Shown piece after piece: positions 49,637-63,521 of a stretch of DNA of 64,000 bases. The position numbers were made by a program, and so were the translations under genes. This DNA comes from an uncultured Ruminococcus sp. Lineage in GTDB: Bacteria; Bacillota; Clostridia; Oscillospirales; Ruminococcaceae. The number at the start of each line of letters is the position of its first letter. The first letter of the stretch is position 1. The stretch lies in assembly GCA_902787825.1 (NCBI GenBank), contig CADAHS010000001.1, positions 74,063-138,062 of the forward strand, read 5' to 3'. Under the pieces are notes generated by a model. The model did not search any database. It had not been told where the DNA came from and saw nothing but the letters and a program-made list of their open reading frames with translations.

Positions 49637-52600
49637 ATGATTGAAAATGATGCAAATTTAATCAAAATATCTCAAGCGCTGCTTGATGAATATGCGTGCG
49701 TATGCAGTGTTAATGTTGTAAACAACGAGTATCAGTGGTATTGGATAGATCCATCTCTCGATGCAATGCAAATAGAACCTGCTGGCACTGATTTCTTTAA
49801 AGACGTTGTCGGTTTTGTTGATCGTGTTGTTTATGAAGAAGATAGACAAGCACTTCTGGAAAACTTTAACGATAACAGCTTTCTTGAAAAACTAAGAAAT
49901 AATTCGGCATTAAACAATGTATTCAGACTTGTTATTGACGGCAGGCCTGTGTATCATTCGCTGCGTCTTATCAGAGATACCGGCGATGATCATTGTTTTA
50001 TTTTTGGTGCTGTTAATATTGATAAAGATTATCGCTGTAAGCTTGAGTCTGATAACGCTGTGAGTGAGCAGTCGTTATTTGACCAAATTGCAGAAAGTCT
50101 TGTGTCACATTATGATGTTATCTATTATGTAGATTTTAAAAGCAACTATTACACTAAATATGTTTCTAAAAATATTTATGGTAGTTTTGATATCAACTCA
50201 GCAGGAGATGACTTCTTTGAAGAAGCCAGGCAAAATGGTGCTCAGCTTATTCACCCTAAAGACAGGGATAGGATCCTTAATGTGCTTGAAAAAGAATATC
50301 TTATTGCTGTACTTGAAGACAGAAAACGTTACATTACCGAATACCGCTTGATAGTTGATGGTAAAACACAGCACACCAGAATGACAGTGATGTGGTCAAG
50401 CGATAAGATCCACATTATTATAGGTGTGGAAAATATCAATGAACAGGTAAGAAAAGAAAAAGAACAGTTCAGAGCTATGAGTATGGCTAATGAACTCGCA
50501 AGATGTGATGAGCTTACAGGTGTTAAGAATAAAAAGGCATATCATGAGCTGGAGGAATCGGTTAACAGCAATATCTCCAACGGACTTGATTATCTGCCGT
50601 TTGCGATAGTCGTTTGCGATGTAAATGATCTGAAGCGTGTGAATGATACTCAAGGCAGCAAATCCGGCGACGAATATATACGTTCTGCATGCCGTTTCAT
50701 ATGTAATACCTTTAAACATTCACAGGTCTTTCGTATCGGAGGAGATGAGTTTGTCGCTTTTTTAGGAAGCGGCGACTTCTATACAAGAGAAGACCTTGTG
50801 CAGAAATTCAAAAGTATTGTATTCAATAATATAAAAAACGGTGAGGGCGCTGTAGTTGCAATCGGAATGTCTGTTTTCGATCCGGCGACCGATAAAAATG
50901 TGATAGATGTTTTTGAACGTGCAGACAGCGAAATGAAATTAAATAAGGCAAAACTGAAGTCATATTATAATAATTCAGATGATACGCCATATCTGCACAG
51001 AATAGATGTTACTATCCCGCCTGAAAGGAAAAAATTCTTAGAGGGCCTGTTTAATGCGTTTTCTGTTATCACTGAAGGAACATATGTGTATCTTTGCGAT
51101 ATGAAATATGACTATTCTATATGGTCTAAGGCTGCTGTTGATACATTCGGACTGCCTTCTGAGCATATGTACCGTGCAGGAGATATCTGGGAGGAACATA
51201 TTCATCCCGATGACAGAGCAACTTATCATCGTGGTATCAATGATATATTTACCGGAAATGCGGCTGGACACGATATGCAGTACAGAGCAAGACGTCTTAA
51301 CGGAAAGTATGATGTGTGCACCTGTCGTGGTATAGTGCTGAGAGATCAGAACGGCGATCTTGATTATTTTGGCGGTTCGATAAGAAATCACGGCTTGCAG
51401 GGACAAGCAGATGCACTCACAGGTCTCAGAAATCTGTACGGCTTCTTTGAAGATCTCCAGTCGTATATGAATAAGAATACCAGTATAAGTGTTTGTCTTG
51501 TAGGTATCAGTAAGTTTTCCGAAATAAATGAGATCTATGGATATCATTTCGGAAACAGAGTGCTTCAGGGGTTTGGAAGATTCCTCTTTGAACATGTTGG
51601 AAATCTGGGAAGTGTTTATCGCCTTGACGGTACTAAATTTGCTGTGTTAAGCAACAGTCAGACTGTTGAGGATATTAAAGAAAAATATGAGGACCTTCGT
51701 GAGTATTTCAGAGAGAAATTTGTTGTTGAAAACAAAAATATTATTCTTGATCTTAACTGTGGATTGTTGTGTGTTGATAATTTTGATATTGACTATCAGA
51801 CAGTCTATGCGTGTCTCAACTACTCATACAGTGAGTCAAAACTGCGTAAACACGGGGAAATCGTAGAGTTCAGCAATGATATAAATGATGAGAATAAGCA
51901 TATTATTGAAAAACTCCATGTTATAAGAGATTCTATTATGCGGGATTACAAGGGCTTTTTCCTGCTGTATCAGCCGGTTGTCGATGCACAGACAGAAAAG
52001 CTTGTTGGAGCAGAAGCTTTGCTCAGATGGCGAAATGACGAATATGGTACTGTTCCGCCGGACAGTTTTATTCCTGTGCTTGAACGTGACCCGCTATTTC
52101 CTGAACTTGGTGAGTGGATAATTCGTACAGCAATAAAAGCGGCTAAGAGGATAATGCAGTACTATCCGGATTTTATTATTAATGTCAATCTGTCGTATAG
52201 CCAGCTTGAAAAACCGGAATTTGTGGAAACGGTGCTGAATATTCTGAGAAAAGAGAATTTCCCGCCAAATCACCTTTGCCTTGAGATCACTGAAAGATGT
52301 AGGCTGCTCAATATGGATCTGCTGAAAAATATTGTTGTAAATCTGCGTGGCAGAGGGGTGCTTATGGCACTTGACGACTTTGGTACAGGATTTTCTTCAG
52401 TCGGACTTGTTAAAAATCTTGAGTTTGATGTTATCAAGATCGACAGAAGCTTCGTCCTAAAGATCGAGGAAGACGAAAAGGAGAGAAAGCTTATAGAACA
52501 CTTCGTAGGTCTTGGCTCGATTTTTGGAGCAAGCATATGTGTTGAGGGCATTGAAACCTCACAAATGCGTGATGTTCTCAAAAAATATGGCGTTAGCGGA

Positions 52601-52672
52601 TTCCAGGGATATTATTATTCAAAGCCAATTTTGATCGATGATCTGCTAAAGTGGAAAGATCCGGATAAATAA
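49637..52672 (+). CDS. Diguanylate cyclase/phosphodiesterase: 2x sensor-GGDEF-PAS-degenerate GGDEF-EAL
   Basis: Intact RIGGDEF; PAS-like HIHPDDR; second GGDEF-like domain reads RLDGTKF; intact EAL motifs (AEALLRW, EITE, DDFGTG, IKID, EGIE, QGYYYSKP). Confidence 0.93.
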   Translation: MIENDANLIKISQALLDEYACVCSVNVVNNEYQWYWIDPSLDAMQIEPAGTDFFKDVVGFVDRVVYEEDRQALLENFNDNSFLEKLRNNSALNNVFRLVIDGRPVYHSLRLIRDTGDDHCFIFGAVNIDKDYRCKLESDNAVSEQSLFDQIAESLVSHYDVIYYVDFKSNYYTKYVSKNIYGSFDINSAGDDFFEEARQNGAQLIHPKDRDRILNVLEKEYLIAVLEDRKRYITEYRLIVDGKTQHTRMTVMWSSDKIHIIIGVENINEQVRKEKEQFRAMSMANELARCDELTGVKNKKAYHELEESVNSNISNGLDYLPFAIVVCDVNDLKRVNDTQGSKSGDEYIRSACRFICNTFKHSQVFRIGGDEFVAFLGSGDFYTREDLVQKFKSIVFNNIKNGEGAVVAIGMSVFDPATDKNVIDVFERADSEMKLNKAKLKSYYNNSDDTPYLHRIDVTIPPERKKFLEGLFNAFSVITEGTYVYLCDMKYDYSIWSKAAVDTFGLPSEHMYRAGDIWEEHIHPDDRATYHRGINDIFTGNAAGHDMQYRARRLNGKYDVCTCRGIVLRDQNGDLDYFGGSIRNHGLQGQADALTGLRNLYGFFEDLQSYMNKNTSISVCLVGISKFSEINEIYGYHFGNRVLQGFGRFLFEHVGNLGSVYRLDGTKFAVLSNSQTVEDIKEKYEDLREYFREKFVVENKNIILDLNCGLLCVDNFDIDYQTVYACLNYSYSESKLRKHGEIVEFSNDINDENKHIIEKLHVIRDSIMRDYKGFFLLYQPVVDAQTEKLVGAEALLRWRNDEYGTVPPDSFIPVLERDPLFPELGEWIIRTAIKAAKRIMQYYPDFIINVNLSYSQLEKPEFVETVLNILRKENFPPNHLCLEITERCRLLNMDLLKNIVVNLRGRGVLMALDDFGTGFSSVGLVKNLEFDVIKIDRSFVLKIEEDEKERKLIEHFVGLGSIFGASICVEGIETSQMRDVLKKYGVSGFQGYYYSKPILIDDLLKWKDPDK

Positions 52673-52766: not shown

Positions 52767-52838
52767 GCAGATATAGTATAGCGGTCATTACTCCAGTTTC
52801 CCAAACTGGTGATGCGGGTTCGACTCCCGTTATCTGCT
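52767..52838 (+). tRNA. tRNA-Gly(CCC)
   Basis: Acceptor GCAGATA/TATCTGC, anticodon stem CCAGT/ACTGG with loop TTCCCAA, T-loop GTTCGACT; promoter TTGAAA(52727)-17-TATACT(52750). Confidence 0.95.
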
Positions 52839-53071: not shown

Positions 53072-53869
53072 TTAGTTGCTTCCAGGACCGTCTACGTTAA
53101 ATGTAAGTGTAATGCCTTCTGCTGTCTTGCCAACGATCTTTGTAAGGTTAGATGTCTTAACAGCTGTAACATCACCGTCATAGTATACATATACATCAAC
53201 GTCTATAACATTGTCACCTGAAATTGTATTTGCAAGTACTACTGTACCGGTTGCATTTGCCTCGAATTTCTGGAAACCTGTTGCAGTAGCTACAACTACA
53301 CGAGTAGGATCGCCTTCGATACCGTCTGTAAGGTTAGAAAGATCAACCTTAAGGTTTGTAGCATCTTCTGAATCTTCTGCCAGACAGATATGAAGTGTCT
53401 TCTTCAGAACTCTTTCAGAGAAAATTGTGGTGGTATCTGTTGCACTCTTAGGAGTTGTTTCGTTGAATTCAACCTTAGTTCCGGTCTTGAGAGTACCGTC
53501 ATCGTATCCGGTACCTTCACCAAAATACCAGTTATTAGCTGTTGTCGGATTTACAGAAGGGTTAACCTCTGAAGTGCCATCTTTTGCAAGTGCTGCAGGA
53601 TACAGTTCTGCACTGTTGCTTGCAGCAGCAAATGTTACACTGGTCTTATTCTCTGTTCTGATGTCAGATGCGGTAGAATACTGCTCACTGATAAGTAAGT
53701 AGGTCGTATCAGCCTTAGCAGTGATGTTAAGTGTCTGAGCAGTAACATTTTTGTTCAGTGAGAACCATGCGAAGGTTGACGAAACGAGCATTGCTGCTGA
53801 AACTGTGAGCATTCCTACTGCCGATAACAGTTTCATCTTGTTTCCGTGTTTCTTCTTTGTATTAGTCAT
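53072..53869 (-). CDS. Secreted SipW-dependent protein (TasA/camelysin-like fibre subunit candidate)
   Basis: Basic N-terminus, hydrophobic core, SSTFA|WF cleavage motif of SipW-cognate signal peptides; Thr/Ala/Asn-rich beta-type mature domain. Start ATG 53869 after GGAAAGGGG. Confidence 0.8.
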   Translation of the reverse strand: MTNTKKKHGNKMKLLSAVGMLTVSAAMLVSSTFAWFSLNKNVTAQTLNITAKADTTYLLISEQYSTASDIRTENKTSVTFAAASNSAELYPAALAKDGTSEVNPSVNPTTANNWYFGEGTGYDDGTLKTGTKVEFNETTPKSATDTTTIFSERVLKKTLHICLAEDSEDATNLKVDLSNLTDGIEGDPTRVVVATATGFQKFEANATGTVVLANTISGDNVIDVDVYVYYDGDVTAVKTSNLTKIVGKTAEGITLTFNVDGPGSN

Positions 53870-53988
53870 AATAAATTCCCCTTTCCAAGAATTTAATTTA
53901 CTGTGACCTGTGTTTATAGCCGAAACCAAGGTCACCGTTCCTCTTTAGGAAACCCAATAATAAATAGTTTTCCGTTTCCTTGAATTAA

Positions 53989-54205: not shown

Positions 54206-54234
54206 TTGACAAAAGAAACAAAATATCGTATAAT
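54206..54234 (+). promoter_or_regulatory. Consensus sigma-A promoter of the EAL*-sipW-AAA operon
   Basis: TTGACA(54206)-17-TATAAT(54229). Confidence 0.85.
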
Positions 54235-54278: not shown

Positions 54279-55070
54279 GTGATAGGATTGAAGCTGAAAA
54301 ATAATGCGACCGTCGGCGGCTTGCGTGCTTTGGAACAGTACTTTCGTCCTATCGGTAACGTGCTCTCCGGTGAAACGATCGCTTTGCAGACTGCTTTTCG
54401 CATGAATAGTCCCTCAAGAGGGGTTATTTTTCCCAACGAGTATCTTCCTGTCCTGGAAGCCTATCCGGATCGTGCCGCAGATTTTATGCCACTTATATTC
54501 TACCATTTATATGATGCTATTGAAAATTTCAAGAAAAGAGATATTGAATGCAGGTTTATTACTCTGCCAATGCCGGTAAGCTTTCTTAAACGTGCTGATG
54601 CAGTTACGGGTACTGTAGAGCTTGCAAAGGCTTTTCATATCCACTCCGACAACATCTGCTTTGAGCTTTCTTCGGCATTGTACGGCGAAACGGACGATAC
54701 AGCGTCAAAGGCAATGTTTGCATTGCAAAGAGAGGGCTTCACGTTTATGCTCAACTCTTTCGGCGGTGAGGATAGTCCGACGATGCTGCTGTCGAGCTTT
54801 CCGGTAGACTATGTTATGATAAATGGTCTTTATACTACCGAGGCGATGCTTGGCGAACGCCACGAAGGCTGGGTAAGATCAGCTTTGAGCTATATTACGA
54901 GTCTGAACTGCTCTGCTATTGCTACTGAGGTCGTTAATTCGGCGCAGGGAGATAAACTCTCCTCACTTGGATGCAGCTATTGTGTGGGTGATTATACCGG
55001 AGATTGGGTCCAGAGAAAATATGTAAGACTTAGAACAGGAGACGAGCAAGACGATAATCAGCAGGAATAA
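54279..55070 (+). CDS. Stand-alone degenerate EAL-domain protein
   Basis: EAL-like layout (YFRPI...RG.I.P.EY.PV.E...FELS...PVDYVMIN) with EAL->QTA, DDFG->NSFG, QGY->VGD. Start GTG 54279 or TTG 54288. Confidence 0.75.
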   Translation: MIGLKLKNNATVGGLRALEQYFRPIGNVLSGETIALQTAFRMNSPSRGVIFPNEYLPVLEAYPDRAADFMPLIFYHLYDAIENFKKRDIECRFITLPMPVSFLKRADAVTGTVELAKAFHIHSDNICFELSSALYGETDDTASKAMFALQREGFTFMLNSFGGEDSPTMLLSSFPVDYVMINGLYTTEAMLGERHEGWVRSALSYITSLNCSAIATEVVNSAQGDKLSSLGCSYCVGDYTGDWVQRKYVRLRTGDEQDDNQQE

Positions 55071-55123: not shown

Positions 55124-55942
55124 ATGAGTAAGAAGAAAAAAGAAGCTAAGCAGCAGGCTGAACTTGAAAACCAGCAGCTTGATGAAAGCACTGAAGCAGC
55201 TGTGAAATCAAGTTCCGATGACAAGGAGAAGGAACAAGCTCTCAGAGATGTCCTGCATATAAGGCGTACAGCTAAGGAAGTTAAGCGGTATACTATCCTG
55301 ATGCGAGTTACAGGACTTATAGCTGTGGCTCTGATAGCGCTGATAGCGATAGGATATGCAATAGCTTATTTTTATAACAAATACGGAAGCTTTACTATTA
55401 AGGTCAACAAATATGATATGGTCAACCAGGGACTTTCACTTTCTGAAACACCCGAATTTGACAGGACCATTTCAGTATTGACCGCTGATATCGTCTATGA
55501 TATGACCAACATCAGCGGAAATGATCTTCCTGAAAATATAGACAAAGTCAACGGAAACCATAACGGCAGGAATTATATCGCCTATACATTCTATGTGCAT
55601 AACTCAGGTAAGGATACAATAACATATGAAGGCGATCTTACTATTGAAAATGTAACTAAGAACGTTGACGAGGCTATCCGTGTGGCTGTTTATACCAATG
55701 GTGAGAAGCAGGTCTATGGTAAGACAAAGTCTAATGGAAGCGGTAAGGAAAGTGACTGCGATAAGGAATTCCTGACCAGTACTCAGGTGATGCATACAAA
55801 CGTTACTGACTTTGAACCGGGCGATACGACCAAATACACTGTGGTTATCTGGCTCGAAGGAAATGACCCTGACTGTGTTGATTCGATAATCGGTGGTGTC
55901 ATAAAAATGCAGATGGATTTCAGGATCGTAGAGAATACGTAA
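55124..55942 (+). CDS. Single-TM protein with extracellular TasA/camelysin-like domain
   Basis: Charged N-terminal region, TM ending YAIA-YF, YTFYVHNSG and YTVVIWLEGND motifs; GGAGG RBS. Confidence 0.7.
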   Translation: MSKKKKEAKQQAELENQQLDESTEAAVKSSSDDKEKEQALRDVLHIRRTAKEVKRYTILMRVTGLIAVALIALIAIGYAIAYFYNKYGSFTIKVNKYDMVNQGLSLSETPEFDRTISVLTADIVYDMTNISGNDLPENIDKVNGNHNGRNYIAYTFYVHNSGKDTITYEGDLTIENVTKNVDEAIRVAVYTNGEKQVYGKTKSNGSGKESDCDKEFLTSTQVMHTNVTDFEPGDTTKYTVVIWLEGNDPDCVDSIIGGVIKMQMDFRIVENT

Positions 55943-55962: not shown

Positions 55963-56664
55963 ATGAAAAAAGCGTTGAAAATTGCAGGCAGTGTTCTTGC
56001 GTGGATCTTGCTGATATTTGCTCTGCTGATTACTATAATGGTTTTTACCTCGGATAAGAACAACGGCGTTCCGAGCCTTTTCGGACGAATGCCGATGACT
56101 GTTGAGTCTGCGTCAATGGAACCTACCTTCAAGGAGGGCGACCTGATCATTTCAAAGGAGATCGACGATATCAACGATCTTAAAGTTGATGATGTTATCT
56201 CTTTCTGGACAAATGAGATCGTTGAAGGACAAAATGTTGTCAATACCCACCGAATTGTTGAGATAAAAGACGATAACGGAACAAAAGCTTTTGTTACAAA
56301 GGGTGATAACAACGAAAACAATGACTCTTATCTGGTTTATCCGAGTAAGATAGTTGGAAAGTGGACAGGCACAAGGCTCGGCGGAGTCGGAAAAATATTA
56401 AAATTCCTAAAGACAAAAACCGGATTTCTTGTATGTATCCTGATCCCGATGGCGATATTCTTCCTGTTTGAGCTGTTTAAGCTTATAATGGTCATCGTTC
56501 AGATGAAACAGCCTGCAAAGCTTACAGAAAATGATGAAGAAGAGATCAAGAAAAGAGCGATCGAGGAGTATCTTGCAGAGCAGCAAAAGCTTAAAGAAAA
56601 TCAGCCGCAGCAGGATCCCCCGCAGCAGACTCAGCAACAGACATCGACTGATAATGCAGAGTAG
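55963..56664 (+). CDS. sipW: Signal peptidase I, SipW (ER/archaeal-type), copy 1
   Basis: VESASMEPT (Ser), GD, NTHRIV (His), TKGDNN..ND; N- and C-terminal TM segments. Confidence 0.9.
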   Translation: MKKALKIAGSVLAWILLIFALLITIMVFTSDKNNGVPSLFGRMPMTVESASMEPTFKEGDLIISKEIDDINDLKVDDVISFWTNEIVEGQNVVNTHRIVEIKDDNGTKAFVTKGDNNENNDSYLVYPSKIVGKWTGTRLGGVGKILKFLKTKTGFLVCILIPMAIFFLFELFKLIMVIVQMKQPAKLTENDEEEIKKRAIEEYLAEQQKLKENQPQQDPPQQTQQQTSTDNAE

Positions 56665-56708: not shown

Positions 56709-58283
56709 ATGAGTAACTTTTTGGATTGGTTCTTTGTTTTTATTTCTGAAATTCTTAAAGGCTTTGCAAGTATATTCAAAGGATTTTGGGAAGGTATAAA
56801 GCAAATTTTCAATATCAAGAATTATATCAACATTTTCAAGGCTCATTCCGAAAGCTTCGGTGTGCTGGAGTGGATACTTGCGATCTTGTCGATAATTCTT
56901 GTTATGGCTATTTTCCTGCTTATCATTTTCATGATAGTGCTGGCAATAAGAAAATACATTCGTTTCAGGCATTCGCTTGTCAGCGATGAGGATCTGCTCG
57001 AGGAGATCGGTGTTCTTCAGCGCCAGGTCATTAAAATGACTAAGGAAAAGGACGAAATTATGGCGATGAAGGTCGCTCAGATGGGCGGCGGTCCTATGGC
57101 TCTTTCAGGAGCAATGGGTGGAACGCTGTCGCTCGGAGACGGCGAGACAGGAGAACAGCCTCAGGGAGAAGAACAGACACAGGAAGGCGTTGTTGTTACG
57201 ACTGTCAAACGTTTCTCCAAGCTTATCGAAGTGGACAACTTCTACAAAACTTATACTCCGCCAGAATATGACAATAACTGTACGCTTGAGCAGATTTGTG
57301 AGGATTACAGAAACTTTGCCTGCTCCAGAATGCATCTGTTTTACGATATAAAGACAATACGTCTGTTTATCGCAGGTATGGCTTCAACAAAGCTGATAAT
57401 CCTTCAGGGTATCTCAGGTACAGGTAAAACATCACTTCCGTATTCGTTCGGTAAGTTCCTCGGCGTTGATACGACCATTGCTTCCGTTCAGCCTTCGTGG
57501 CGAGACAGAACCGAGCTTTTCGGTTTCTTTAACGAATTCACCAAGAACTTTAACGAAACAGAAGTACTTAAAAGAATTTATGCATCAAGCTTCAATAATG
57601 ATGTAAACTTTATCCTCCTTGATGAAATGAACATCGCAAGAGTTGAGTATTACTTCGCTGAGATGCTGTCCATACTTGAAATGCCTAACGCAGACGAGTG
57701 GAAGCTCGACCTCGTTCCTAATGTATGGAGCACTGACCCTGAAAACCTTGACAAGGGTATGATCAAGATACCGCAGAATGTATGGTACATTGGTACAGCC
57801 AATAACGACGACTCAACATTTGCGATCTCTGATAAGGTTTACGACCGTGCTCAGCCTATCAACCTCGATGCAAAGGGTATTGCATTTGATGCGCCTGATA
57901 CGCCGCCGATGTGCCTGGGATATGATCATCTCAATGACCTGTTTGAGGAAGCTTTCAAGAAGTATCCTATCAGTGATGAAAACCTCAAGAAGATACAGCA
58001 TCTGGATCTGTGGGTAATTGAAAAACTCCGTGTGGCTTTTGGTAACCGTATTATCAAGCAGATGGGTCTGTTTGTCCCTGTTTACGTTGCCTGCGGCGGA
58101 GATGAACTTGATGGAATCGACTATGTGATGGCTACCAAGATCTTCAGAAAGTTTGAATCTCTCAACCTTTCAATGCTTCGTGACGAGCTGAAGGATCTGT
58201 GTACATACCTTAAAAAGACCTTTGGTGCAAACAGCATGAAGGAATCCATCGCATACCTCGAACGTCTGCAAAAGCTTTATTAA
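56709..58283 (+). CDS. Membrane-anchored McrB-family AAA+ NTPase
   Basis: Amphipathic helix, TM and coiled coil, then GISGTGKT (Walker A), LLDEMNIARVEYYF (Walker B), GTANNDD (NxxD), SDKVYDRA, FGNR. Confidence 0.85.
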   Translation: MSNFLDWFFVFISEILKGFASIFKGFWEGIKQIFNIKNYINIFKAHSESFGVLEWILAILSIILVMAIFLLIIFMIVLAIRKYIRFRHSLVSDEDLLEEIGVLQRQVIKMTKEKDEIMAMKVAQMGGGPMALSGAMGGTLSLGDGETGEQPQGEEQTQEGVVVTTVKRFSKLIEVDNFYKTYTPPEYDNNCTLEQICEDYRNFACSRMHLFYDIKTIRLFIAGMASTKLIILQGISGTGKTSLPYSFGKFLGVDTTIASVQPSWRDRTELFGFFNEFTKNFNETEVLKRIYASSFNNDVNFILLDEMNIARVEYYFAEMLSILEMPNADEWKLDLVPNVWSTDPENLDKGMIKIPQNVWYIGTANNDDSTFAISDKVYDRAQPINLDAKGIAFDAPDTPPMCLGYDHLNDLFEEAFKKYPISDENLKKIQHLDLWVIEKLRVAFGNRIIKQMGLFVPVYVACGGDELDGIDYVMATKIFRKFESLNLSMLRDELKDLCTYLKKTFGANSMKESIAYLERLQKLY

Positions 58284-58294
58284 TAATACCTAAT

Positions 58295-58331
58295 GACCTG
58301 CCTTGCCATTAGCCAACGGGCAAGTCAGGTC
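58295..58331 (+). other. Intercistronic stem-loop
   Basis: GACCTG-CTTGCC / GGCAAG-CAGGTC pairing, followed by GCTTTT. Confidence 0.6.
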
Positions 58332-58425
58332 GCTTTTATATGTTTGATCCTATAATGATATGAATTCAGCTAACGATTGCTTATAAAAGAGTTATCTATT
58401 AATTTTTCTGAAAGGAGGGGAATGT

Positions 58426-60573
58426 GTGGACGAGTTTTATGACAAGTGGTATTCCAATTTTACTCAGACTATGGACGGTATGGAAGATAACGAGCTGTTC
58501 GATGCTATGCATTCCCTGATAATGTCAAGTAAGAACACCTTTGCCGTCAACCGCAAAATAATGGAAAAATCTGTTGACGTTTCGTGGGTAGATGCTATTG
58601 AGGAGGGTCTGAAGCACCTTGATACGGTGCTCAGAACACCGAGAGTTACTATCGAGGATGTTGGAGAGGTCGTTCCGATCGCACTTTCAAGAAAGATCAC
58701 AGTTGAATCTGTAAAGCATCTTGCTCAGCATACCGATCTTATTCAGGACTACGACCCTGTCACAAATACTATCACTCCTTCAAAAGTACTTAATGTACAT
58801 AAGGAGGAGAGTATGATGACCTATGAGAATAAGTTTATCAATACCCTCGTTGACAGGTTGTATGTGTTTATTATCAGACGATATGAAAAGCTTCAGGAGG
58901 TAGCTAAAGACGAAGAAGTGTTCTCTCTTTCCTATAATACCGATGTTGACGATAAAATGGGAAAGCAGATGAGCGTCAGCTTGAAGCTTGAAACTACCGA
59001 CAGTCTTGAAACTGTCAACGAAAGTGGTCTTACTGTCTGGGAAAGAGTTGAACACCTGAAAAAAGCCGTTGAAGGCTATAAAGGATCAAACTTCTGCCAG
59101 GCAATGGGCAATGTCTATATAAGACCGCCTGTAATGAGAACTAATGCTATCATGAAAAACGTGGACCTTAAAGCCTGCCTTACACTCTGGCAGTTCATCG
59201 AGGGCTACGATAAAGTCGGATATGAGATAAACGTTGTTGATACAGCTCAGAAGCTTGACGAGGACTATATGATGGATTTCTATAACCTTGTTGCTCTGAA
59301 TTTTCTGCTTTTCCGTTCGTATACTCATAAACCGACTAAAAAGGCAAATGAACTAAAAACCGCAAAATCTAAGGCGTTTCTCCCTAAGTTCCTTAAAAGG
59401 TTCAATAAGGATGATATGTCAAAATATGATGTTATGGCTCAGCCGCAAAGCCTTGGTGAAACAGTATATGACCACCAGGGAGAAGCTGGCGAGCTGAATA
59501 TCGGTCTGCTTAATGAGATCGACCAGGTCTTTGCTCTTGAAAAGGAGTATATCCGTGTTGAGCGTATCAGGACAGAGGTCGAGCGAATTGAACGTGAAAA
59601 GGCTGAAAAGAAGCGAGCGGAGGCAGAAGAAAGACGTCTCGAAGCTTTGCGTCGTGAGGCGATCAAGAAAGCTGAAGCGGAAAAAGCAGAGCGTGAGCGG
59701 ATACAGCGTGAAGAAGCTGAGCGGCTTAAAAAGGAATGGGAAGAAAGACAGCGTGCTGAAGCCGAAGAACGTGAAAGGCTTGCTAAGGAAGCAGCTGAGC
59801 GTGCTGAAAGAGAAAGACAGGAAGCCGAAGAGCGCAAGCAGCGTGAATATGATAACTTCCGCCGTGCTCAGCTTACTGCCGAGAGAATTGAGCAGGAGCG
59901 TATCAAAGCCGAGGAAGAAGCAAAACGTCTTGCAGAGGAGGAGGCAAATCTTACTCCGGAGCAGATCGCAGAAAGAGAGCGTCTGAGTGCAGAAAAGCTT
60001 GCTAAGGAAAAGCGGGAAAAGATTCGTGCAGACAGACTCCGTGAGGAAAGAGAGATCTACCGCAACAGAGATTTCCATACAATATATCTGGAATACTCAA
60101 GAAGTCCTTGGTGCGTGATAAGAAGATTCTTTATCACACTGTGGTGCGTGATCTTCCGCAAGCCTTATGTTCCTGATGTAGATCCTAAGTATTACAGAGC
60201 CGAATATCCCAAAAAGCATTGGCTCGAAAGACCTATGGAAACAGCTGCCGAGCGTGACGAGCGTCTGCAGATGAAGGTCTACTATAATAAATACGCTACT
60301 ATGTTCCCTTATGACTTCAAACGGTTCATTAAAGATATCAAGTGGAAGATGAAGAAGAAAAAACCGCTTACTGATGCACAGAAGCAGAAGATCAGACAAT
60401 CACTGCCTGTTATGACTCCGGAAGAGGTGAACGCAGAAAATGCTCGGATCAAGGCTTTGTTCAAGGAGTATCATGTAAGTGTGTTCACCAAGATAAAGAG
60501 AAAGTTCAAAGAGTGGCGTGAAGATAAGAAACTAAAGAATGAAAGGGTCAATGAAGAAGATGATAAAAAGTAA
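58426..60573 (+). CDS. DUF2357 (McrC N-terminal-like) protein with long E/R/A/K coiled coil and no recognisable nuclease domain
   Basis: TYENKFI motif and MRTNAIMKN..LKACL.LW segment; charged helix about 59539-60060; AAGGAGG RBS before GTG. Confidence 0.7.
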   Translation: MDEFYDKWYSNFTQTMDGMEDNELFDAMHSLIMSSKNTFAVNRKIMEKSVDVSWVDAIEEGLKHLDTVLRTPRVTIEDVGEVVPIALSRKITVESVKHLAQHTDLIQDYDPVTNTITPSKVLNVHKEESMMTYENKFINTLVDRLYVFIIRRYEKLQEVAKDEEVFSLSYNTDVDDKMGKQMSVSLKLETTDSLETVNESGLTVWERVEHLKKAVEGYKGSNFCQAMGNVYIRPPVMRTNAIMKNVDLKACLTLWQFIEGYDKVGYEINVVDTAQKLDEDYMMDFYNLVALNFLLFRSYTHKPTKKANELKTAKSKAFLPKFLKRFNKDDMSKYDVMAQPQSLGETVYDHQGEAGELNIGLLNEIDQVFALEKEYIRVERIRTEVERIEREKAEKKRAEAEERRLEALRREAIKKAEAEKAERERIQREEAERLKKEWEERQRAEAEERERLAKEAAERAERERQEAEERKQREYDNFRRAQLTAERIEQERIKAEEEAKRLAEEEANLTPEQIAERERLSAEKLAKEKREKIRADRLREEREIYRNRDFHTIYLEYSRSPWCVIRRFFITLWCVIFRKPYVPDVDPKYYRAEYPKKHWLERPMETAAERDERLQMKVYYNKYATMFPYDFKRFIKDIKWKMKKKKPLTDAQKQKIRQSLPVMTPEEVNAENARIKALFKEYHVSVFTKIKRKFKEWREDKKLKNERVNEEDDKK

Positions 60574-61279
60574 GCTCAAGCTTGCGGCAAAGATCACTCT
60601 GATCTCATTGATCGCAGTAATGTTTTTTATCGTTGTTTATGTTTTTGTTTGCAATATCCGTGGAAAGGTCGCAAGTATAGGCGGATACAGCATTATGAAA
60701 GTCCTTACAGGAAGCATGGAGCCGTCTATTCATGTGGACGATTATATCCTGATAAAGAAAACAGATGTTTCGCAGCTGGAAATAGGAGATGTCATAACAT
60801 TTTATTCTGACGATCCTCAGATCAAGGATATGCCTAATTCACATAGGATAATTGCTAAAAATAATGACGGCTCATTTACTGTTAAGGGAGATGCTAATCC
60901 TGTTGAAGACACCTATAAGGTCAGACCCGACAGAGTGATCGGAAAGTATGTCAGAAAGATCTGGATATTCCGGTTTATCGGCTCGTTTGCGTCATCAAGA
61001 AAACTGCTGATGATACTGTTTATCCTGCCTACAGTTTGTATCTGTATCTATGAATCAAGGACTCTTGTAAGGATAATCAGAGGAACTGACGGCGATGATG
61101 AGGATAATGACGATGAGGATAGTAACGATAATACTCTAAGTGATGAGCAAAAGAAACAAAAACTTATCCGTGAGGCTATTGAGAAGGAAAAGGAAAAGCT
61201 AAGACAGCAGGATAAGATCAATGAAAGTGAAGTGATAGTCAGTGGGTCAGGAAAAGATAATGAAAAGGAAGATGATTAG
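60551..61279 (+). CDS. sipW: Signal peptidase I, SipW, copy 2
   Basis: VLTGSMEPS (Ser), NSHRII (His), KGDANPVED; start overlaps the DUF2357 gene end. Confidence 0.9.
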   Translation: MKKMIKSKLKLAAKITLISLIAVMFFIVVYVFVCNIRGKVASIGGYSIMKVLTGSMEPSIHVDDYILIKKTDVSQLEIGDVITFYSDDPQIKDMPNSHRIIAKNNDGSFTVKGDANPVEDTYKVRPDRVIGKYVRKIWIFRFIGSFASSRKLLMILFILPTVCICIYESRTLVRIIRGTDGDDEDNDDEDSNDNTLSDEQKKQKLIREAIEKEKEKLRQQDKINESEVIVSGSGKDNEKEDD

Positions 61280-61700
61280 CGCTATAATCTGGTCGCTGAT
61301 ACTTCTCATTGCGTTGCTGGTGTTTATTGGTCTGTATATTGATAAGACTAAGGAAAACAAAGAAAGATACCGCACTCAATATAAAAACTGTATTTCTGAT
61401 GCAGCGGAGGAGATAGATACTTATCTTGACCGCAAGATAGACTATGATCTTCATTATAATATGGTGATCTCTTATCTGGGTTCGGCTCGGTCCTTCATTT
61501 TTCTGATGGAGGACGAAGAGATGACAGAGAAGCAAAAGTCGATAAATGAACTGCATTATTGTTTTGTCAAATACCCCGAACAGATGAAAACAAGACTCGA
61601 AGCTGTAAGCACCGCTTTAAAGGACGTGTACGATAATCTTGATAAAGGATACGATGAAATAAATGCCGTCGTTGATTCGGTAGATAAAATGGGTAAATAG
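61260..61700 (+). CDS. Hypothetical single-TM helical protein
   Basis: N-terminal TM (ISAIIWSLILLIALLVFIGLYI); overlaps the sipW2 stop. Confidence 0.75.
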   Translation: MKRKMISAIIWSLILLIALLVFIGLYIDKTKENKERYRTQYKNCISDAAEEIDTYLDRKIDYDLHYNMVISYLGSARSFIFLMEDEEMTEKQKSINELHYCFVKYPEQMKTRLEAVSTALKDVYDNLDKGYDEINAVVDSVDKMGK

Positions 61701-61715: not shown

Positions 61716-61943
61716 ATGAGTGAAAAAAGAAAATATAAAAAGGAAATAATGAAATGCCGTAAGACTATCGAGGAGATCGAGCGAAAGCGTTCTCGTTCTC
61801 AGTCGGCGTTGGTGCAGGCTATCCTTCTTCAGGAGGAGCCGCAGGAAGCTGATGTTGAGTGGTTCAATAAGTATACAGGAGAGATAGATGCGGTCAGAAA
61901 GCATATGATAACTACTCAGAAAAAGCTTGATCTTATAAAATAG
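61716..61943 (+). CDS. Small coiled-coil hypothetical protein
   Basis: 75 aa, AGGAGG RBS, followed by a hairpin. Confidence 0.75.
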   Translation: MSEKRKYKKEIMKCRKTIEEIERKRSRSQSALVQAILLQEEPQEADVEWFNKYTGEIDAVRKHMITTQKKLDLIK

Positions 61944-61949
61944 CTCATA

Positions 61950-61979
61950 GACCACAGAGTGAATTTTTACTCTGTGGTC
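61950..61979 (+). terminator. Terminator/hairpin ending the operon
   Basis: GACCACAGAGT/ACTCTGTGGTC 11-bp perfect stem. Confidence 0.7.
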
Positions 61980-62109: not shown

Positions 62110-62182
62110 GAGCTATTAGCTCAGTTGGCAGAGCATTTGACTTTTAATCAAAGGGTCTGGGGTTCGAATCCCCAATAGCTCA
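62110..62182 (+). tRNA. tRNA-Lys(TTT)
   Basis: Acceptor GAGCTAT/ATAGCTC, anticodon stem TTTGA/TCAAA with loop CTTTTAA, T-loop GTTCGAAT; promoter TTGACA(62020)-17-TATAAT(62043); terminator 62185-62213. Confidence 0.96.
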
Positions 62183-62312: not shown

Positions 62313-63521
62313 GTGATAATGATGAATGACCTGAATAAACTGCTTGTTGATGTTAAAACCCTTGTGATTTTTAAAAGTCTTAACCAAGATCCTGTTTTTA
62401 TAAAGCTTCTTGAAGCAATTAAAGCGTGCATAGAGGAAAACACAGATAACAGTATTGAAAAGTACTGTGATTTTGTGAGCGAGCTATATACATATTCAGA
62501 TGATCTGACAAGTTATATGCTCAAAATGGTGCTTGAAAATGAGAACCTCTTTATGCTGCGCAAAGGCGAGGGTAAAGCAACAGGAAGGCTGCTTGAAGAA
62601 TGTCTTGCAAGTGAGCTTGAAATAATTCAGGAGATATCCGAGATACCATCTTCCGAGATAATTTCAAAGATCAATTATGACGGCTTTTTGCCTGGGTACA
62701 AAACACAGAAAATTGATTTTTCACAGATCTACGCCGATAGGATCCACCAGATCAACAGGTACGGATACGGGATTTACTCGCAGTATCATGTGTTTGTTGT
62801 AGAAAACCGAAAGATCGTTCCTGTGGAATTTCCGGATCCTATCCGCATTCAACAGTTGTGCAACTATGAGCTTGAAAGGGAACAGGTAATTAAAAATACC
62901 CTTGCCCTTATCGCAGGAAAGCCTGCAAACAATGTGCTTTTGTATGGCGATTGCGGAACGGGGAAGTCATCAACTGTCAAAGCGATAGCGAATGAATATG
63001 CTTCACAGGGTCTCAGACTTATCGAGCTGAAAAAAAAGCAGCTTCATGAACTTCCGTCTATCGTTGAAACTGTCAGTAAGAATCCTCTTAAATTTATTAT
63101 TTTTATTGATGACCTTTCTTTCACCGAAGACGATGACGATTTTGCTGCTCTTAAAGCTATTCTTGAAGGAAGTGTTTCATCAAATGCCGCAAACCTTGCT
63201 ATCTATGCGACGTCAAATCGCCGACACCTTGTCAGAGAGACCTTCTCAGCCCGACAGGGAGATGAGATACATTTCAAGGATACTATGCAGGAGCTTTTAT
63301 CGCTGTCGGACAGATTCGGACTTACCGTAACATTCCAAAAGCCGGATAAGAAAACATTCCTCGAAGTCGTTTCAAGTCTTGCACAACAGTATGAGCTTGA
63401 TATGCCGCAGGACGAGCTTTATATGAAGGCTGAAGCATATGCACTTGCAAGGGGCGGACGCTCTCCGAGAGTTGCTAAACAGTTTGTTGAATATCTGAAA
63501 GGATGTGGAGATAATGCTTGA
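62313..63521 (+). CDS. DUF815 family AAA+ ATPase
   Basis: NNVLLYGDCGTGKSS, FIIFIDDLSF, LKAILEG, YATSNRRHLV, LSDRFG, RSPRVAKQF. Confidence 0.9.
   Translation: MIMMNDLNKLLVDVKTLVIFKSLNQDPVFIKLLEAIKACIEENTDNSIEKYCDFVSELYTYSDDLTSYMLKMVLENENLFMLRKGEGKATGRLLEECLASELEIIQEISEIPSSEIISKINYDGFLPGYKTQKIDFSQIYADRIHQINRYGYGIYSQYHVFVVENRKIVPVEFPDPIRIQQLCNYELEREQVIKNTLALIAGKPANNVLLYGDCGTGKSSTVKAIANEYASQGLRLIELKKKQLHELPSIVETVSKNPLKFIIFIDDLSFTEDDDDFAALKAILEGSVSSNAANLAIYATSNRRHLVRETFSARQGDEIHFKDTMQELLSLSDRFGLTVTFQKPDKKTFLEVVSSLAQQYELDMPQDELYMKAEAYALARGGRSPRVAKQFVEYLKGCGDNA

Follow-up and report, generated by a model that had tools for sequence, protein, structure and literature searches.

The forward-strand gene at 58426..60573 in the window, by which we mean the whole 64,000-nucleotide (nt) stretch of an uncultured Ruminococcus sp. 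analysed here (contig CADAHS010000001.1), encodes a McrC-like (DUF2357) protein of 715 amino acids (aa). We consider it probable, at roughly 0.6, that this protein is the McrC-like subunit of CoCoPALM, a McrBC derivative that does not cleave DNA and is attached to SipW-type signal peptidases. Its most likely role is that of an adaptor linking a GTPase ring to a membrane peptidase for the assembly of surface fibres. The gene starts with a GTG codon, preceded 6-7 bases upstream by the ribosome-binding site GGAGGGG. Besides the open reading frame (ORF) with its translation and a Pfam DUF2357 match, the annotation draws on a word-indexed search with the protein, which returned more than 1000 homologues; their named sources are mostly Ruminococcus albus, R. 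flavefaciens and Ruminococcus sp.

The conserved N-terminal module covers aa 1-305 (58426..59340, forward strand), as delimited by an AlphaFold2 model, a fold match in the PDB and the relatives. Within it, Pfam DUF2357 matched aa 63-166 (nt 58612-58923) with 29-32 bits against a curated cut-off of 23.3, the alignment spanning positions 94-197 of the 251 in the profile. We also aligned this module with 76 relatives, reaching down to about 30% identity, and DUF2357 was matched in all 76 (best E-value 7.8e-14). The similarity to DUF2357/McrC claimed in an earlier note on this DNA is thus borne out by profile, both for the protein itself and for every relative. An exhaustive search with aa 1-345 against 1.84 billion representatives gave 1360 relatives at E <= 0.001; E <= 1e-30 was reached by 446 of them. 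In most of the 1360, aa 20-336 formed one matching unit.

The motifs on which the earlier note had based its claim are TYENKF (aa 132-137), T-N-A-I-M-K (aa 239-244, the pattern T-x-x-I-x-K) and L-W (aa 254-255), and they are conserved across the 76 relatives. Fourteen residues are invariant in this set, among them Y133, N135, F137, R152, R207, N240 and W255, while E134, T239 and K244 are at least 90% conserved, and a basic residue is present at K48, K/R136 and K244 in every relative. The only conserved acid-x-base triplet, E134-N-K/R136 (window positions 58825-58833), is located within the DUF2357 core, where a helix begins. Position 134 is glutamate in 75 of the 76 sequences, and position 136 is lysine in 44 and arginine in 32. 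Together with R152, R207 and K244, K/R136 makes up a set of candidate basic residues for activating a McrB-type nucleoside triphosphatase (NTPase).

The AlphaFold2 model of aa 1-345 had a mean predicted local distance difference test score (pLDDT) of 90.3, with all of aa 1-300 above 80 and low values after aa 305. The closest fold in the PDB identified with Foldseek was Escherichia coli McrC (6hz4 chain M, probability 0.90), and structural look-alikes of the module in the Atlas were Bacillota DUF2357 clusters. Sequence searches of solved structures, done with phmmer and with a profile of the 76 sequences, gave only chance matches to EF-Tu, and no PADLOC or NCBIfam model matched the protein. 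A McrC-type N-terminal module is present in the 715-aa protein.

A nuclease was sought at several levels. Library profile scans matched no nuclease family in the McrC-like protein, in its C-terminal parts or in the 76 relatives; in these relatives PDDEXK_7, McrC and other nuclease families gave nothing above noise, and longer relatives of 838-1548 aa had no nuclease domain either. Downstream of the DUF2357 match, i.e., after aa 166 in the 76-relative alignment, there was no conserved D...(D/E)xK. The profiles and the motif analysis agree with the earlier observation that no properly spaced PD...(D/E)xK is present. A nuclease is thus undetectable by sequence profiles and conserved-motif analysis, though aa 160-305 may hold an inactivated structural remnant. 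Scans of the operon proteins with Pfam, NCBIfam and PADLOC (for the 75-aa protein NCBIfam only) recognised EAL and SipW and found no nuclease or HEPN domain. The earlier note had set this protein apart from the nuclease-bearing CoCoNuT type, and the operon-wide result is in line with that distinction.

Directly upstream of the McrC-like gene lies the gene for a membrane-anchored McrB-like AAA+ NTPase of 524 aa (56709..58283, forward strand), an arrangement that fits the earlier proposal of an AAA+ partner. This protein matched the PADLOC model PDC-M26A (1.5e-39), the NCBIfam McrB model (5.7e-4) and the E. coli McrB structures 6hz4 and 6ut6 (E of about 1e-3), and its Walker A (GISGTGKT) and Walker B (LLDEMN) motifs align with those of E. 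coli McrB. A transmembrane (TM) segment at about aa 55-80, with a Kyte-Doolittle value of 3.58 at aa 62-80, is followed by a short heptad segment, a glycine-rich linker and the AAA+ core from about aa 200; a conserved helical segment occupies aa 95-125. Pfam gave no match to FtsB/DivIC in the N-terminus at E up to 10. The motif G-T-(A/I)-N-N-D-D-S-T-F is invariant in five homologues of 44-65% identity. Its N-N-D-D fits the NxD followed by D that Bell et al. (PMC11090510) describe, yet it aligns without gaps to N-T-A-D of the E. coli protein. Across relatives the AAA+ protein is 44-79% identical.

The AAA+ and McrC-like genes are separated by 142 nt, compared to 27-64 nt in three other Ruminococcus species. 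Within this gap lies a 13-bp GC-rich hairpin (58294-58332; -20.4 kcal/mol, z -3.35) with a stretch rich in U behind it, possibly an attenuator or terminator inside the operon that controls how much of the AAA+ protein is made relative to the McrC-like protein.

The connection to a signal peptidase is apparent from the gene on the other side. SipW-type signal peptidase 2 (SipW2, 246 aa; 60539..61279, forward strand) was identified by NCBIfam TIGR02228 at 88 bits, and fused relatives carry PF09823 and PF10502. Its ORF lies in the +1 frame relative to the McrC-like gene, and the two share up to 35 nt at the end of the latter. Many homologues of 968-1039 aa, annotated as 'signal peptidase I' by their sources, contain DUF2357, the charged helix, the tail, the TM anchor and Peptidase_S26 in one chain. 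Fused frames of about 990-1009 aa occur in at least 11 of the 33 genus genomes with a match, and split frames of about 711-761 aa in 17 genus genomes besides the window's own. In distant loci, too, the DUF2357 gene is directly adjoined or overlapped by a SipW gene. The notion that the protein acts as a tether, already put forward in the earlier note, gains strength from these natural fusions to the downstream peptidase.

The C-terminal region that leads up to this junction is a basic aromatic tail, aa 549-715 (60070..60573, forward strand), delimited by alignment, motif spacing, amphipathicity and a low-confidence AlphaFold2 model of a fused relative. The motifs I-Y-x-E-Y-S, Y-Y-x-K-Y-A and L-[FY]-K-E-Y-H-V-S are conserved, and in five relatives they are set at constant distances of 64 and 56 aa. 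The three helices (aa 553-569, 619-635 and 678-694) are amphipathic (hydrophobic moment 0.47-0.62) with a net charge of +3 to +4. Of the repeated amphipathic tail described earlier, the three basic amphipathic helices stand; their repetition does not, as local alignment gave scores no better than shuffled sequences for two of the three pairs and a z of 2.7 for the third. By alignment, the helices are best described as conserved family motifs and not as demonstrable repeats. A TM segment was not found in the McrC-like protein, where the highest 19-residue Kyte-Doolittle window reached 1.09. In fused relatives the tail leads straight into the membrane anchor of the peptidase. Because these relatives continue as one chain into the SipW-type enzyme, the tail is predicted to be the juxtamembrane segment of a split McrC-SipW protein.

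Between the N-terminal module and the tail lie a poorly conserved linker, aa 306-372 (59341..59541, forward strand), recognised by the low pLDDT after aa 305 and by variable alignment columns, and a Glu/Arg/Lys/Ala-rich helix of 176 aa, aa 373-548 (59542..60069, forward strand), recognised by composition and charge-pair statistics. The helix consists of 61% D/E/K/R and contains one proline and no glycine. Hydrophobic residues make up 15% of it, and in every heptad register the a and d positions are at most 20% hydrophobic (38% when alanine is counted). Opposite-charge pairs at i/i+3 and i/i+4 are enriched, with 0.51 per residue against 0.37 +/- 0.035 in shuffled sequences. The E/R/K/A-rich helix of the earlier description is thus present, but its designation as a coiled coil is doubtful because there is no heptad hydrophobic core and opposite-charge pairs are enriched. 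A candidate interpretation that better fits the sequence is an ER/K single alpha-helix of about 26 nm. A homodimer prediction of aa 350-560 scored 0.00, a low score that says nothing for or against pairing. Both length and sequence of the helix vary among relatives.

The McrC-like gene is the fifth of an eight-gene operon with the order EAL, 272-aa membrane protein, SipW1, AAA+, McrC-like, SipW2, 152-aa TM protein and 75-aa protein. The same gene order was found in R. albus, R. flavefaciens and a Ruminococcus metagenome-assembled genome, with housekeeping flanks that differ between them. The order SipW, McrB-like, DUF2357, SipW is kept even in loci where the McrC-like protein is only 30-40% identical, and two of these distant loci retain a 74-aa counterpart of the last gene. 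Within the genus, the McrC-like gene is present in 33 of 39 genomes and in 26 of the 29 of good quality, while in the family it was found in only 6 of the 166 genera sampled. It is single-copy in this genome. Such a distribution is typical of a housekeeping or envelope system specific to a lineage, and not of a mobile defence island.

To explain how such an adaptor could work, a sequence of steps can be proposed. By analogy with McrC in McrBC, the N-terminal module would dock in the pore of the McrB-like hexamer and stimulate its NTPase. The ER/K helix of about 26 nm would act as a stiff spacer, and the basic aromatic tail would lie at the inner face of the membrane beside the SipW anchor. In the split form the link between tail and SipW2 would be non-covalent, aided by translational coupling of the overlapping genes. 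In this way the NTPase cycle in the cytoplasm would be tied to events outside the cell, where TasA-like surface-fibre proteins are processed or assembled; the EAL protein might place this under control of cyclic di-GMP (c-di-GMP). A more ambitious version, which we offer only tentatively, is that the cytoplasmic McrBC-derived ring is mechanically coupled, via the adaptor and its helix of about 26 nm, to a peptidase with an extracytoplasmic active site, so that NTP hydrolysis gates or powers the cleavage and donor-strand assembly of TasA-like fibres. If true, Gram-positive bacteria would possess a new class of fibre-assembly machine that is driven by an NTPase and takes its geometry from the variable length of the helix.

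Several points weigh against the proposed identity and role. The Foldseek match to McrC is globally weak (E 0.014, TM-score 0.22). Predicting the AAA+ core (aa 165-524) and the N-terminal module as a 1:1 complex gave a score of 0.00, from which nothing can be concluded since McrC binds a hexamer. The AlphaFold2 model of the tail plus SipW from a fused relative showed a helical tail at pLDDT 46-68, too low to read packing or contacts. A 402-aa relative lacks both helix and tail, indicating that the core system can do without the spacer. The role in fibre assembly is proposed from the gene neighbourhood only.

Alternative explanations concern both the gene structure and the function of the operon. 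The split between the McrC-like protein and SipW2 could be due to an erroneous frameshift, or a fused gene could recently have become a pseudogene, in view of the two ORFs overlapping by up to 35 nt in different frames and the fused versions being common. We regard this as extremely improbable, because the same open frame of about 720-744 aa is present in seven other species-level genomes in which the N-terminal module is 90-96% identical, and 14 sequence clusters with 88-93% identity over the full length are likewise 709-715 aa long. Moreover, other lineages show a clean separation, e.g., 749 aa plus 235 aa with an 8-nt gap, and in the window both ORFs are intact, SipW2 having its own TM anchor and its Ser and His motifs. 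Judged by these frames, the McrC-SipW split appears real. The operon as a whole might also be a McrBC-derived anti-phage defence system, with the McrB/McrC-like pair as the sensor of infection and the SipW proteins as the membrane or protease effector that it triggers, the outcome being abortive infection. The match of the AAA+ protein to PDC-M26A, a phage-defence candidate model of PADLOC (1.5e-39), would agree with this, as would the ancestry in McrBC restriction systems and the placement of the clade next to CoCoNuT defence systems by Bell et al. (PMC11090510). The McrC-like protein, on the other hand, matches no PADLOC model, and library scans found no nuclease, HEPN or other toxin domain. 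A defence function is also difficult to reconcile with a single-copy gene present in 26 of 29 good genus genomes, with a fixed operon order between species-varying housekeeping genes that include no defence genes, and with the consistent linkage to SipW and to proteins of the SipW-client type, and we consider it improbable.

A third explanation keeps the membrane location and changes the task of the McrC-like protein. Its DUF2357 module could serve for docking only, the protein being a passive scaffold that holds the AAA+ ring close to SipW and has no influence on NTP hydrolysis. All the work would then fall to the ring, which might, e.g., extract cleaved signal-anchor fragments of clients. 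In the 272-aa client, about 60 cytoplasmic residues precede the TM segment at the N-terminus and could offer an AAA+ ring a handle. Conservation is also much higher in the AAA+ protein (77-79%) than in the McrC-like protein (about 48% across its full length and 55-66% in the N-terminal module). However, the conserved basic and polar residues of the N-terminal module (K48, K/R136 and K244; R152, R207 and N240) suggest a functional interface beyond docking, and McrBC structures, as reviewed by Bell et al. (PMC11090510), have McrB activated by a conserved Arg/Lys of McrC. Passive scaffolding is thus unlikely, if less so than a defence function.

CoCoPALM is a widespread McrBC derivative that apparently moved from DNA restriction to a role in the cell envelope. 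It is near-universal in fibre-degrading rumen and gut Ruminococcus, and an understanding of its function could explain how TasA-like surface fibres get built in them. The natural McrC-SipW fusions provide a concrete, testable link between motor and peptidase.

The remaining genes of the operon are all on the forward strand. A consensus sigma-70-type promoter with 12/12 matches (54206..54234) precedes the first gene, which encodes a stand-alone EAL-domain protein (54279..55070; Pfam EAL 1.3e-23) found at the same place in three other Ruminococcus loci. The 272-aa membrane protein with a long charged N-terminus (55124..55942) has a counterpart gene at the same position in three Ruminococcus loci. 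Its Atlas neighbours include clusters annotated as 'SipW-cognate class signal peptide family protein' and Peptidase_M73 (camelysin/TasA-family), which we take as a lead only; it is probably a SipW client of the TasA/camelysin fold. SipW-type signal peptidase 1 (SipW1, 233 aa; 55963..56664; NCBIfam SipW 6.5e-36) has a charged C-terminal tail, and distant loci also have a SipW gene upstream of the McrB-like gene. SipW1 and SipW2 are the only two SipW-type peptidases of the genome. Two ordinary LepB-type signal peptidase I genes are located elsewhere in the genome (G000:C1:182362-182850 and G000:C35:24543-24977); because of these, the SipW enzymes can be regarded as dedicated extras.

Downstream of SipW2, an ORF for a 152-aa protein with an N-terminal TM segment (61242..61700) corresponds to genes for 144-151 aa at the same position in relatives. 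The last gene encodes a protein of 75 aa (61716..61943) that is 42-80% identical in five loci, distant ones included. It contains the motif K-R-S-R-S-Q-S-A-L-V, has no NCBIfam match and is conserved even where the McrC-like protein is only 30-40% identical. The 75-aa protein belongs to the core system. A terminator-like hairpin of 13 bp with a T-run (61950..61979) follows.

Divergent from the operon, on the reverse strand, a translated ORF at 53072..53935 encodes a 287-aa secreted protein with a SipW-cognate-type signal peptide; a promoter-like site lies at 54017-53989 and no family match was found. This protein is probably a fibre subunit. Just upstream of the locus is a gene for a PAS-GGDEF-EAL protein (49637-52672). 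Rfam detected no riboswitch in the window, of the c-di-GMP type or otherwise, and only three tRNAs; because there is no c-di-GMP riboswitch, any control by c-di-GMP must act through proteins. The locus, with the divergent TasA-like gene, is bracketed by tRNA genes at 52767-52838 and 62110-62182, which may be coincidence and not an island boundary since the flanks differ in other species. Behind the second tRNA gene and its own promoter-like site, a DUF815 AAA-family ATPase (62313-63521; Pfam 4.6e-89) appears unrelated to the operon.

CoCoPALM was named by Bell et al. in 2024 in one paragraph that deferred the system to a later paper (PMC11090510). It was described as a McrB-like GTPase with an FtsB-like TM and coiled-coil fusion and an NxD instead of an NxxD motif, together with a coiled-coil McrC homologue and associated proteins of the signal peptidase family, without a nuclease (PMC11090510). 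No further description came up in literature searches for later work on CoCoPALM, for PDC-M26 or for SipW in combination with McrB. The locus studied here has the McrB-like AAA+ protein, the adjoining DUF2357 McrC homologue and two SipW-type genes flanking the pair. No nuclease is detected in either case. The TM anchor and short heptad segment of the GTPase may correspond to the FtsB-like fusion, its N-N-D-D to the NxD motif and the long charged helix to the coiled coil of the McrC homologue. Several features go beyond the published description (PMC11090510), namely McrC and SipW as one chain in relatives and as two here, a helix of ER/K-type character, motifs conserved in the tail, a 75-aa protein kept across loci, and near-core status in the genus. 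The locus is probably another member of this already named class, with a split McrC-SipW arrangement, and adds anatomy and not a new class.

With E. coli McrC (6hz4 chain M), its top PDB fold match, the protein shares a DUF2357/McrC-type N-terminal module and a gene position directly after that of a McrB-like NTPase. In contrast to E. coli McrC, no PD-(D/E)xK domain or motif is detectable, and a 176-aa charged helix and a juxtamembrane tail are present instead; unlike in E. coli McrBC, the NTPase partner lacks a DNA-binding domain and is anchored in the membrane. The CoCoNuT systems (CnuB/CnuC) are McrBC derivatives, too, in their case with coiled coils, and their McrC homologue often lacks an active nuclease. 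A gene for HEPN or another nuclease always lies next to them, and their predicted target is RNA (PMC11090510), whereas the operon studied here has no HEPN or nuclease gene and encodes peptidases and secreted proteins. In tapA-sipW-tasA of Bacillus subtilis and sipW-bsaABC of Clostridium perfringens, a dedicated SipW is encoded with TasA-like secreted proteins (PMC11580942), and the locus resembles these operons in combining a SipW-type signal peptidase with TasA-like secreted proteins. Those operons have neither an NTPase nor a McrC-like protein, whereas here the McrBC-derived pair is enclosed by two SipW paralogues, of which one occurs in relatives as a fusion with the McrC-like protein.

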